Part shown: in pieces, positions 36,001 to 39,000 of the stretch
Numbering within the stretch: the stretch's first letter is position 1
Layout of the letters: each line of letters starts with the position of its first letter
NCBI GenBank assembly: GCA_910583945.1
Contig: CAJTYF010000003.1
Coordinates: forward strand, 3,466-67,465
From: an uncultured Bacilli bacterium
Lineage (GTDB): Bacteria; Bacillota_I; Bacilli_A; RF39; UBA660
Direction of reading: 5' to 3'
Length of the DNA stretch: 64,000 nucleotides
Program-made: the position numbers

Positions 36001-39000
36001 AAACGTTTTATATAACGTGATACTTCCTATTATTAACAAGATTCCTACTATAGGATAAACCATTTTCTTATTCCTTTTGACTCCAGTAAACCTTTTTAGT
36101 TGGTTATTAGTTTCTAATAACCCCCCCCCCTTCTTAAATTTAATCTTTTTCATTTTCTTTTTTCCTTCCTTATTAAATTTATTTCATAACCAAACAAAGT
36201 CTTTTACCTTATTTGTAATTCAATTATATCCACACCAGCATAATTTATCAACATTAAAATAAAACTATTTACATAATCAATGCTATCTTTAGTTTATCAA
36301 TAATAATTTAAAAATTTTGTCATATTAAATTGTTTTCTTTTCATTATGAAATTCTTAATCGCATAATTAGACAATTTTAAAAGGATACATTTTTTGTTTA
36401 TGAGAGAATTGTTTTGGTGATAAATTTGATAAATATTGGTGAGCGTATTCGTTTTATAAGAGAAACTTATGACTTAAGTCAAAAAGAATTGGCATCAATA
36501 TTTGGTATTGAAAAGTCTTCTATTTCACATTTTGAAAAAAATGATCGGATTATTCCTATTGAACATTTGATTAGTTTAAGTGATTATTTAAACTTATCTA
36601 TTGACTATGTTCTAGCTTAACTGAAATAAAAAAATATAAGGACCTAGATTCTGGCGTTGATTTAAAAAAAATGGCAGAAAGTGTAAAAAATATTTGCCGA
36701 ACCAATCATTTAACTAATTTAGCTTTAGCAACGATTATTCATTCTTGCGAATCAAATATAAGAAACTATAAAAATGGAAAATACCTTATTTTAATAACAT
36801 TTCTTATAGAACTTCATTTAAAATTCAATTATTCTATCGATTGGATTCTAGGAAAAACCTCTAATAAGTATATTACAAAGAAATTAATTGAAGTTTAATT
36901 TCTTTTTTCAACAAAAAAAATTAGTTTTTAAACTAATTCTAATTTTACTTCTAAGGCATCGTCGCCTTTTCTTTCTTTTAATTTAATAATTCTAGTGTAC
37001 CCACCATTACGAGTTTCGTAACGTGTTGCTAGTTCATTAAAAACTTTATCAACACATTCTTTATTGTTATAAACAAAAGCAAGTGCTTTTCTACGAGAAA
37101 CTAGTGTTCCACGTTTTCCATAAGTTATTAAACGATCTACAAATTTTCTAACTTCTTTTGCTTTTTCTTCTGTAGTAATAATACTTTCATGAATAATTAC
37201 GTCTGCTGCTTGTCCGGCAAATACACTATGTCTTTGTCTTGTTTCTCTACCAATTTTTCTATACGCCATAATAATCCTCCTTAATCTCGAAATTTAAGTC
37301 CCATTTCAACAACTTTATCTAAGACTTCTTTTAATGATTTTTTCCCTAAGTTACGTATTTTTGTAACTTCAACTTCTCTTTTTGAAATTAAATCTTGAAC
37401 CGTATGAATACCAGCTCTTTTTAAACAGTTATATGCTCTAACTGAAAATTCGATTTCTTCAATTGGTGTTTCTAATGTTTTCGTTATGGTATCTACTTTT
37501 TTCTCTGCCATTAATCCTGAAATATCACTTATCGCATTTAAATCTGCTACAATATTAAAATGTTCAATTAAAATTTTTGCTGATAATGCCATACATTCTT
37601 CTGGAGTAATGCTTCCATTTGTATTAATACGCATAATCAGTTTATCATAATTTTCATTATGACCTACACGCGCATTTTCGACTTCGTATGCTACTTTTTC
37701 TACGGGTGAATATAAAGAATCGATTGCTATGACTCCAACTTTTTTGGTGTCTAATTTTGTTTGATTTTCTTTAGCGTCTACGTAGCCTTTTCCATTTGAT
37801 ACGGTCATTTCCATATTAATTTTTCCACCCTCGACTAGATTACAAATTATTAACTCTTTATTTATAACTTCTAAATCGGGGTCACATTCTATATCTCCAG
37901 CAGTGACTGGTCCTGGTGTTGATTTATTTATATGAATCACTTTATCTTCTTCAGTATGATTTTTAAGTACCACACTCTTTAAATTTAAGATAATACTAGT
38001 CACATCTTCATAAACGCCTTCTATTTTTTGAAATTCATGTAATACGCCATCTATTTTTACGCTAGTAATGGCACATCCTGGTAAACTGGATAACATGACA
38101 CGTCTTAAAGCGTTTCCTATTGTTGTTCCGAATCCTCTTTCTAATGGTTCTAATTCAAATGTTGCATAATGAGAATCGGAAGCATATTCTGTTATTTTGT
38201 ATTCTGGTTTTTCAAATTTAATCATATTATTTCTCCCTTTCGATCATTAATTTCTAGGACGTTTTGGTGGTCTACATCCATTGTGAGGTACTGGTGTGTC
38301 ATCAATGATACTTGTTACTTCAATACCAGCTCCTTGAATAGAACGAATTGCATTTTCTCTACCAGATCCTAAACCTTTAACGTGTACTTCAACTTTTTTT
38401 ACCCCCGCATCAGCAGCAGCTTTTGCACAAGCCTCAGCACTCATTCCAGCAGCATAAGGTGTTTTCTTTTTGCTTCCCTTATAACCGATTGTTCCCGCAG
38501 ATGCCCAAGTAATGACATTCCCATTTTTTTCTGAAATGGTTACGATTGTATTATTATAGTTTGAATGAATATGAGCCACTGCTTCAGGAATGTTTTTCTT
38601 AACTTTTCTTTTTCTTCTGTTATATGCCATAGTTTACCTCCTACTTACCTACTTTTTTCTTATTTGCTACTACTTTACCTTTACCTTTACGAGTACGTGC
38701 ATTTCTACTTGTTCTTTGTCCTCTTACGGGTAAACCTTTTTTATGTCTTATTCCTTGATAGCAATTAATTTCCATTTTATTTTTAATAGACATTTGTACA
38801 TCACGACGAAGATCTCCTTCAACGTCGTATTTATCTACTTCTTTACGAAGAGCTGTGATTTCACTGTCTGTTAAATCTTTAATTTTTTTAGTTGAATCGA
38901 CTTTAGCATCGTTACAGATTGTTAATGCTAAGCTTCTTCCAATTCCATAAATTGCTGTTAATCCAATACATACATGTTTTTCATTTGGTAGTTCAATATT

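Follow-up and report, generated by a model that had tools for sequence, protein, structure and literature searches.

Two exact runs of ten guanines, standing at the same site in two paralogous genes and in DNA of 29.8% GC, raise the question of whether tract length decides the frame in which these genes are translated and could act as a switch. The window (the whole 64-kb stretch analysed, from an uncultured low-GC Bacilli lineage of the mouse gut whose MAG has spo0A) carries the runs on the minus, coding strand at 36121-36130 and 63195-63204 (C10 on the plus strand), each 7–8 codons 3′ of a start codon, ATG1, that is served by a Shine-Dalgarno sequence. They are the sole G or C runs of at least 6 nt in the window. 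If bases are treated as independent, 0.0006 G10/C10 runs are expected at this composition; the expectation for G8 matches is 0.18, and the observed number was reached in 0 of 100 shuffles. Long homopolymers that are unexpected for the composition and lie inside a coding region, as at both of these sites, are a mark of contingency loci. Judging from sequence, we consider it probable that the runs are hypermutable tracts serving as translational on/off switches for a multigene family of membrane-anchored surface proteins in these uncultured mouse-gut Bacilli.

Gene copies and their shared leader

The paralogous family is dispersed, with at least five copies on the contig. Copy 2 (34969-36153, minus strand) encodes 394 aa comprising a Lys-rich leader, three glycines specified by the tract, a membrane anchor, a conserved proximal domain and a variable, C-type-lectin-like distal domain. 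Reading starts at ATG1 (36153), the eighth codon (AAG) provides the first G of the tract, and GGG GGG GGG TTA follows in a frame that stays open to 34969. Copy 4 (62077-63228, minus strand) has the tract in the context AAT G10 AG TTA; from ATG1 at 63228, eight codons lead into GGG GGG GGG GAG TTA, again in frame. The translated ORFs of copies 2 and 4 thus bear out the initial annotation, which had described exact G10 runs at these two positions that keep ATG1 in frame. Its account of copies 1 and 3 was equally accurate: both share AATGGGGTTA with a run of four G, the ATG1 product (MKKIKFKNGVIRN plus stop) is an upstream ORF (uORF) of 14 codons, and a second start, ATG2, reads MGLLETNN.... In copy 3 (54912-56088, minus strand), ATG1 at 56088 opens the uORF, which ends at 56047, the G4 run occupies 56061-56064, and the 384-aa body shares the frame of ATG2 at 56066; a second assembly contains a 100% identical counterpart. 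The leader of copy 1 (10682-11892, minus strand; ATG1 11892, ATG2 11870, G4 11865-11868) is built as in copy 3. A fifth paralog (P0007), represented in the window by its 3′ part (63355-64000, minus strand), lies in tandem with copy 4; its 5′ end, which is beyond the window, reads AAT G10 TTA in a near-isogenic contig.

Two of the five copies in the window are damaged outside the tract. Copy 1 is split by a 5-nt deletion near 11730, and in copy 4 a Trp codon, number 299, has become TAG (62334-62332), an in-frame stop that leaves 298 aa, after which the gene resumes in the same frame for a 77-aa remainder (62310-62077). This premature TAG was absent from the initial annotation.

A promoter-like site, TTGATA-17-TATAAT (36223-36251, minus strand), lies about 70 nt 5′ of the copy 2 ATG1. 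Every copy shares the −10 box and the 5′ UTR; the promoter and the Shine-Dalgarno sequence are likewise conserved. A hairpin sequence of 21 nt, GGTTATTAG-AAA-CTAATAACC (36102-36122 in copy 2, minus strand), directly abuts the tract; it is invariant and contains stops in both off frames (TAG; TAA TAA). RNAalifold retained two invariant hairpins in an alignment of 14 leaders and found no covariation in them, invariance alone; the RNA structure of the leader therefore stays a prediction. A UTR segment and codons 4–8 appear complementary in both leader types and could form a third helix, which the consensus fold missed. A search of the whole window against Rfam returned nothing at gathering thresholds.

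ATG2 is present in 12 of the 14 distinct leaders, including those of copies 1, 3 and 4, and is missing from copy 2 (leader AAGAAG10) and from one related locus (L009). Start codons in two frames upstream of or at the repeat are the arrangement known from licA-type switches. Here ATG2 can be regarded only as a putative start, because no Shine-Dalgarno-like sequence lies within 20 nt upstream of it; the hairpin begins a few bases downstream.

Switching by an invertible promoter was considered and rejected, in agreement with the initial annotation. Inverted repeats near the promoters are AT-rich and reach 70–86% complementarity at best, promoter orientation is the same in 14 of 14 leaders, and no recombinase ORF adjoins the genes among the ORFs of the window.

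Tract length and reading frame

We propose the following mechanism. Each gene is laid out alike, with its own sigma-70-type promoter, the conserved 5′ UTR, a Shine-Dalgarno sequence and ATG1, 7–8 mostly Lys codons and the poly-G tract, and the hairpin sequence directly 3′ of the tract supplies the stops in both wrong frames. Slippage during replication would gain or lose a G. A tract that places ATG1 in frame would yield the full anchored protein, and at other lengths ribosomes would halt within 5–7 codons. ATG1 is presumably the main start, the ATG2 frame (AATG...) probably gives weak or no expression, and switching within a population is likely to be frequent and reversible.

In-silico translation of G9, G10 and G11 alleles agrees with this layout, the off frames stopping within 5–7 codons. 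A change of one unit moves ATG1 into or out of frame with the body, which is intact in copy 2 and interrupted in copy 4. Copy 2 lacks ATG2, so the gain or loss of a single G would simply turn it off: ATG1 is out of frame at G9 and G11, and a short dead-end peptide results (stop TAA or TAG). In copy 4, G10 puts ATG1 in frame, G11 puts ATG2 in frame and G9 neither. The earlier proposal that a gain or loss of one G toggles between the ATG1 fusion and a uORF/ATG2 mode is supported in that the tract sets the ATG1 frame; the second half does not apply to copy 2, and copy 4 reaches ATG2 only at +1 G and carries the TAG at codon 299. Gene callers place the start at ATG1, ATG2 or a downstream Met according to tract length, within single 90% clusters.

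The tracts differ in length between near-identical genomes, as contingency loci do. In a near-isogenic metagenome assembly, flanks totalling 7.4 kb show 2 mismatches, and the sole two indels are the tracts themselves, with G11 and G9 in place of G10 and ATG1 out of frame in both. At the copy 2 locus (window 31969-36217 against L006), 4250 bp align with 2 mismatches and one gap, which is G11 against the G10 of the window; at the copy 4 locus (window 60832-64000 against L011), 3169 bp align with 0 mismatches and one gap, G9 against G10. All 17 A/T runs of 7–8 nt in these stretches are unchanged. A further sequence of the copy 2 locus (L014) has G10. Two contigs of 19597 and 19595 bp carry G11 and G5AG3, respectively, and a locus at ftsH-gmk has G7 or G10 in lineages whose flanks are 99.3% identical.

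Tracts of G4, G7, G9, G10 and G11 were found in related loci, so that all three phases are occupied, and interrupted tracts (G5AG3, G2AG8, G4AG5) occur in some relatives. All except one of the G/C runs of at least 7 nt in 74 kb of related loci are at the 5′ end of family genes. The length that puts ATG1 in frame is G9 in most relatives, as against G10 in copies 2 and 4. A DNA tally over about 18 loci gave nine in the ATG2 frame, four in the ATG1 frame and five in neither; among distinct proteins, 60 are in the ATG2 frame and six in the ATG1 frame. The commonest state in relatives (ATG2 frame, G10) is thus out of frame with the ATG1 that has the Shine-Dalgarno sequence. Two explanations offer themselves: most copies may be held in the off state, or translation may start mainly elsewhere than at ATG1. 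A scan of metagenomes (JGI) identified three loci.

Distant homologs have a second poly-G site, located in the anchor-coding region and independent of the leader tract. In GCA_947589195.1, one paralog with this site is in frame at G9 (L024) and another is out of frame at G10 (L015). The commonest state of this second tract type is G10, one above the in-frame G9, and leaves a truncated anchor with no plausible start. Collectively, the observation that the leader tracts are the sole indels in 4250 and 3169 aligned bases, together with the occupation of all three phases in relatives, supports the contingency-gene idea put forward in the initial annotation, in which G10 would be a hypermutable, frame-setting site.

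Alternative readings of the tract

The alternative that survives best, which we find plausible although on balance doubtful, is that two frames are productive. ATG2 would be a real, perhaps the usual, start, used by ribosomes that translate the uORF or without a Shine-Dalgarno sequence; G10, G7 and G4 would give MG(1-3)LLETNN..., G9 the ATG1 fusion and the third phase no protein, resulting in three expression levels. The wide distribution of ATG2, which is retained as CATG where the preceding codon differs, is consistent with such a role, as is the excess of distinct proteins in its frame, by far the commonest. The short, stable tracts (G7 in at least six protein variants; G4 in copy 3) are all in the ATG2 frame, with intact ORFs of 381–384 aa. 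There is also a precedent in Haemophilus influenzae licA, in which starts lie in two of the three frames upstream of the repeat and both are used (PMC2212159). However, besides the missing Shine-Dalgarno-like sequence and the closeness of the hairpin to ATG2, the uORF stop is 16–34 nt 3′ of ATG2, a long distance for coupled re-initiation. The second-site majority is likewise one G off, without a plausible start, so an off-by-one majority needs no second start. Moreover, protein databases favour whichever frame a gene caller opens, and the DNA tally of nine in the ATG2 frame versus five in neither is not significant.

A broader proposal, which we regard as speculative and rather unlikely, treats the leader as a portable three-state module consisting of promoter, 5′ hairpin, Shine-Dalgarno sequence with ATG1, Lys-rich codons, poly-G with embedded ATG2 and the stop-bearing hairpin. 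Placed before complete genes, such a module would give high expression in the ATG1 frame, low, uORF-coupled expression in the ATG2 frame, or none. As a result, lectin-like relatives of phage receptor-binding proteins would be displayed on the surface in varying combinations, allowing the lineage to evade secretory IgA or phages.

It is improbable, in our view, that the length differences are merely homopolymer errors of short-read assembly, or ordinary inactivating frameshifts at a fragile run in a decaying family. The comparison sequences are all metagenome assemblies, some at 4–16x coverage, with contigs that often end at the shared leader, and a tract might in principle differ between assemblies through consensus errors at the homopolymer. 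Gene decay also fits the damaged copies 1 and 4 and the interrupted tracts of relatives. Against this, independent samples repeatedly give the same length (at least three for G7, at least four for G10), so that consensus calling is reproducible. G9–G11 tracts stand at the same codon position across species-level MAGs and paralogs at 30% GC, the second site is independent, and decay would erase the runs; most bodies are intact across 380–390 aa.

Recoding without a DNA change, by which RNA polymerase or +1/−1 ribosomal slippage on the G run would restore the frame in some products so that DNA length would matter little, is equally hard to credit. Nine to eleven identical bases would let tRNA-Gly or the nascent RNA re-pair perfectly, the invariant hairpin or a Shine-Dalgarno-like GGGGG might help (prfB uses an AGGGGG of this kind just 5′ of its +1 shift site), and out-of-frame alleles with intact bodies are common; nevertheless, the same loci have alleles in the correct frame as well as in each of the wrong ones, which would be intolerable for a programmed site, the hairpin follows the run with zero spacer as against 5–9 nt in −1 frameshift signals, and transcriptional slippage is best documented on A/T runs. 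Recoding could account for leaky expression, not for polymorphism in the DNA. A programmed ribosomal frameshift site was accordingly rejected as a candidate: allele phase is variable, the hairpin has no spacer and there is no covariation.

The encoded protein and known phase-variable systems

An AlphaFold2 model of fair quality (pLDDT 76) places an N-terminal helix at residues 29–59, followed by an ectodomain predicted to be C-type-lectin-like. It matches best to the IgA protease of Thomasclavelia ramosa, in the N-terminal domain of that enzyme, and to phage receptor-binding proteins. With Foldseek, gut-phage proteins matched at E = 1e-22 to 1e-13, and some of these are labelled receptor-binding protein or DUF6273. 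Searches of Pfam, NCBIfam and PHROGs with the protein gave no match, and Pfam DUF6273 (PF19789) had no hit at E ≤ 0.1 for four window proteins; one distant relative scored 20.2 bits against this model, for which the cut-off is 23.5. The modelled likeness to DUF6273-labelled phage proteins is structural only. The protease domain of the T. ramosa IgA peptidase is absent from the window proteins, and its N-terminal domain is dispensable for IgA cleavage. Paralogs are 85–100% identical in the membrane-proximal half and 24–50% identical in the distal half. The product is probably exposed on the cell surface, where it may bind a ligand from the host, a phage or another cell. Because the lectin-like fold is reminiscent of the targets of diversity-generating retroelements (DGRs), a DGR origin was weighed for the variable half, but the ORFs of the window include no evident reverse transcriptase.

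The mechanism proposed here is a familiar kind of on/off switch, and the gene family is new; neither the family nor poly-G switching in these Bacilli turned up in the literature search. In gut commensals, most of the phase variation mapped so far concerns invertible promoters, above all those of Bacteroides and some Firmicutes, and repeat-based switches are mainly known in pathogens. The evidence points to an entire family of surface proteins under poly-G control in uncultured low-GC Bacilli of the mouse gut, with two tract positions that evolved separately and a predicted ectodomain fold common to a domain of a gut IgA protease and phage receptor-binding proteins. Should the switching prove real, the family would be a good candidate for a variable surface facing host IgA or phages. 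Given that tract length leads to mis-started or truncated calls and that assemblies break at the leader, such families are under-annotated in MAG catalogues.

The closest parallels are intragenic G-tract switches in Campylobacter (PMC8355987) and in the pili of Bifidobacterium breve (PMC9187656). As in Campylobacter jejuni and Helicobacter and in the sortase-pilus genes of B. breve, a tract in the G8–G11 range lies in the 5′ part of a gene for a surface structure, where a one-G change toggles the frame. The low-GC genome of C. jejuni likewise makes such a run stand out, and B. breve provides an example from a gut commensal. In contrast to both, the putative switch presented here concerns uncultured mouse-gut Bacilli and an uncharacterised family; its tract sits in a short leader before the signal-anchor, and the invariant hairpin 3′ of the tract holds stops for both off frames.

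The CAAT repeat of H. influenzae licA (lic1) also has starts in two frames upstream of or at the repeat (PMC2212159), so that protein is possible in two of the three repeat phases, there as here. It differs in being a tetranucleotide repeat with both starts shown to be used; here the repeat is a homopolymer, and the putative ATG2 has no ribosome-binding site and is lost in copy 2.

Among the Mollicutes, which are low-GC and placed within Bacilli in GTDB, the vaa gene of Mycoplasma hominis undergoes poly-A frameshifts and the vlp genes of M. hyorhinis have promoter poly-A tracts. These switches are homopolymer-based and act on variable surface proteins in multigene families, as proposed here, although the tracts are poly-A, the products are lipoproteins and there is no sequence relationship. 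The Opa genes of Neisseria, about 11 and dispersed, carry CTCTT repeats in their leader-peptide codons and switch independently, most being off at any time. Like the Opa repertoire (PMC3745409), the present family is a dispersed multigene family of surface proteins. Each copy in either family carries a separate repeat within the codons for the N terminus, and the variable distal parts suggest recombination between copies. Opa proteins, however, are outer-membrane β-barrels of a Gram-negative bacterium governed by pentanucleotide repeats, whereas the proteins described here would be single-pass anchored products of a Gram-positive-type lineage, governed by a homopolymer.

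Poly-G tracts, paralogous genes and their leaders

The window (GC content 29.8%) contains only two G/C runs of at least 6 nt, both of them G10 tracts (the same holds at a threshold of at least 8 nt), with 0.0006 G10/C10 runs expected under independent bases. The first, a C10 on the + strand and hence a G10 on the coding (−) strand, is located at 36121-36130 in copy 2 of a family of paralogous genes for predicted membrane-anchored surface proteins; the second is located in copy 4 (63195-63204). Just 3' of the tract, a 22-nt motif (TTATTAGAAACTAATAACCAAC) is present in four places, each marking a paralog on the − strand. 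Copy 2 (34969-36153, − strand; 394 aa) has a frame that is open throughout and begins ATG AAA AAG ATT AAA TTT AAG AAG GGG GGG GGG TTA. Copy 4 (− strand) is likewise in frame from ATG1, the start codon upstream of the tract (63228), via ...ACA AAT GGG GGG GGG GAG TTA. An in-frame TAG (62334-62332; Trp in relatives) limits its ORF to 298 aa, and beyond this stop the remainder continues in the same frame. An "on" tract in copy 4 would therefore yield a truncated protein at best. This TAG is also found in a near-isogenic contig (L011).

Copies 1 and 3 read AAG AAT GGGG TTA; the ATG1 product is MKKIKFKNGVIRN followed by a stop, and the ATG within AATG (ATG2, at the head of the tract) is in frame with the body. 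Copy 1 is split by a 5-nt deletion (GAAAA) in GAAGAAAAGAAAAG, at the YEEKKSF site (11722-11740). The start MKKSFNVLKG that this deletion produces recurs in several 90% clusters of related proteins (P0125, P0144, P0146, P0163, P0164), reflecting either repeated slippage at the (GAAAA)2 site or spread of the lesion by gene conversion. A fifth paralog is represented by its 3' part alone (63355-64000, − strand, continuing past the window end); it stands in tandem with copy 4, and its leader in the near-isogenic contig reads AAT G10 TTA, the ATG2 frame. The initial annotation had described the G10 and G4 runs, the uORF and ATG2 accurately; it left the strand unstated and overlooked that copies 1 and 4 are damaged. 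Two small + strand ORFs (36414-36620, 68 aa; 36671-36898, 75 aa) are divergent from copy 2 and absent upstream of the remaining copies; the 68-aa product resembles an XRE-type helix-turn-helix protein.

All copies have four leader elements in common: a sigma-70-type promoter, a 5' UTR, a Shine-Dalgarno sequence, and Lys-rich codons with the G run. The predicted promoter of copy 2 is TTGATA-17-TATAAT (36251-36223, − strand; 11/12 matches). The UTR (~65 nt) starts with a near-invariant hairpin (CAAAUAAGGU...(G)ACUUU(G/A)UUUG; 36190-36215, at the same position in other copies), the Shine-Dalgarno (AAGGAAGG or GAAAGGA) is placed 9-10 nt 5' of ATG1, and 7-8 codons, mostly Lys, separate ATG1 from the G run. 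In both leader types, a UTR segment 5' of the Shine-Dalgarno is complementary to codons 4-8 (AAATTTAAT/ATTAAATTT, GTCTT/AAGAC), a pairing unsupported by the consensus fold of the leaders.

Directly 3' of the tract, GGTTATTAG-AAA-CTAATAACC can form a 9-bp hairpin without mismatches, which takes the final two G of the tract as its own first two (one per copy, − strand: 36102-36122, 63173-63193, 56041-56061 and 11845-11865). Since AG follows the tract in copy 4, the hairpin sequence there starts with A. Across 14 distinct leaders, drawn from several MAG species, this sequence is almost always unchanged, even at synonymous sites, which suggests constraint at the nucleotide level; the consensus fold of these leaders contained no covariation in it, so any structural role is putative. 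Of the two wrong frames through it, one meets TAG and the other TAA TAA, and out-of-frame ribosomes would therefore halt within 5-7 codons.

Start codon use

Because the ribosome-binding site serves ATG1, we take ATG1 as the natural "on" start, which makes copy 2 the sole window copy both in the ATG1 frame and intact. It had been proposed that one G gained or lost switches expression between ATG1 and ATG2. Copy 2 contradicts this: it reads AAGAAG10, ATG2 is absent, and G9 and G11 are thus both plain "off". The proposal fits copy 4 for G11 alone, which puts ATG2 in frame.

Productive initiation at ATG2, with ATG1 opening a short out-of-frame ORF, is a possibility that we consider less likely than not. 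Of the 14 leaders, 12 retain ATG2 (as CATG if the codon before it differs), its frame is the most frequent state (60 distinct proteins vs 6), and the short, stable tracts (G7, G4) are all in the ATG2 frame with intact ORFs. Haemophilus influenzae licA has start codons in two of three frames, both usable (PMC2212159). However, comparison of the leaders revealed no Shine-Dalgarno-like sequence upstream of ATG2, the hairpin begins a few bases 3' of it, and the uORF stop lies 16-34 nt past it.

A second type of tract also argues against ATG2 use. Distant homologs (~50% identity) carry poly-G elsewhere, in the membrane-anchor codons ~25 codons past their ATG (L015 1508-1517; L016 ~264-273; L024 ~366-374). 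Two paralogs in GCA_947589195.1 differ at this site, with G9 keeping the frame in L024 and G10 breaking it in L015; a further genome has G4AG5, out of frame, at this site. The majority state is again G10, one G above the in-frame G9, with no plausible alternative start. By analogy with other multigene surface families, most copies may be kept off.

Tract length across assemblies

Public data contain ~390 relatives of the copy-2 protein, almost all of them in MAGs from mouse gut labelled "Bacilli bacterium" or "Tenericutes bacterium". Within single 90% clusters their called N-termini alternate between three forms: MKK..(N/K)GGGLLETNN from ATG1, MGGG/MGG/MG-LLETNN from ATG2, and a downstream Met. 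At the copy-2 locus, contig L006 (ERR3199695_2091) aligns to 31969-36217 (4250 bp; 2 mismatches) with a single gap, in the tract (G11 against G10), so that the gene is called from Met31. At the copy-4 locus, L011 from the same sample matches 60832-64000 over 3169 bp with 0 mismatches and a single gap, again in the tract (G9 against G10). As a control, 17 A/T runs of 7-8 nt in these matched stretches were unchanged. These differences between near-identical assemblies go part of the way towards the G9/G10/G11 length check proposed in the initial annotation. The G4 of copy 3 was the same in a second assembly (100% identity across 7155 bp). Two contigs from another species, 19597 and 19595 bp long, differ in one tract (G11 vs G5AG3), and the ftsH-gmk locus of a further lineage has alleles CATG7TTA and CATG10TTA with flanks 99.3% identical. 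Among ~18 loci read as DNA, 9 were in the ATG2 frame, 4 in the ATG1 frame and 5 in neither. Of the G/C runs of at least 7 nt in 74 kb of related loci, a single one lies outside the 5' end of genes of this family.

Assembly error or gene decay is a very unlikely source of these differences. The comparison sequences are metagenome assemblies and some window copies are damaged; yet across species, with genomic GC at 30%, a G9-G11 run is conserved at the same codon position, poly-G also occupies a second, independent site, and identical tract lengths recur in independent samples (copy 2 with G10 in 4 contigs; the G7 and G10 ftsH-gmk alleles each in several). Transcriptional or ribosomal slippage could add leakiness but is very unlikely as the main mechanism, as it cannot account for DNA polymorphism or variable phase. 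Invertible promoters, which the initial annotation had set aside, are excluded. We conclude that these comparisons, made between assemblies, show a frame-setting tract that, judged from sequence, appears hypermutable and kept by selection.

In a related MAG, a G8 run occupies the spacer of a promoter-like TTGACA-17-TATTTA (L002 3207-3245), a possible transcriptional poly-G switch for the downstream gene, which encodes a zinc-ribbon membrane protein of 151 aa. In related MAGs, contigs L001, L002, L003 and L010 terminate at the tract or no more than 40 nt away, and L004 has an N run (7340-7358) equally near. The ~130-nt leader common to the paralogs probably breaks assemblies, and the family is therefore likely under-represented in MAGs.

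The encoded protein and known switches

The copy proteins had no family match in Pfam, NCBIfam or PHROG. In an AlphaFold2 model that drew on 48 homologs (pLDDT 76, pTM 0.71), a disordered N-terminus rich in Lys leads into a long helix at 29-59, taken as the anchor, and then into an ectodomain of mixed alpha/beta structure. Foldseek against viral models returned gut-phage proteins (E = 9e-22 to 5e-13), some labelled receptor-binding protein or DUF6273. The modelled ectodomain also resembles the N-terminal domain of the Thomasclavelia ramosa IgA protease, which its depositors call an expanded C-type-lectin-like domain of unknown function, dispensable for IgA cleavage (PMC12237041). The C-terminal 250 residues have 2853 relatives (50%-representative level), many ending long proteins and one adjoining phage tail-fibre repeats. 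Identity among the five paralogs is 85-100% in the membrane-proximal half but falls to 24-50% in the distal half. This is the pattern of a variable surface protein with a predicted ligand-binding role.

In our literature search, neither this surface-protein family nor poly-G switching among these uncultured Bacilli had been reported. The mechanism is known and will not surprise a specialist; what is new, and can be tested, is the family itself, its host lineage and its connection to an IgA-protease/phage receptor-binding fold. Experiments would be worthwhile on the embedded ATG2, on the invariant hairpin with its stop codons and on the existence of two independent positions for the tract. The same mechanism, an intragenic homopolymer switch, is classical in Campylobacter (PMC8355987) and Helicobacter and operates in Bifidobacterium breve pili (PMC9187656). 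The multigene layout resembles that of Neisseria opa, and the possible two-start layout of the poly-G leader that of H. influenzae licA.
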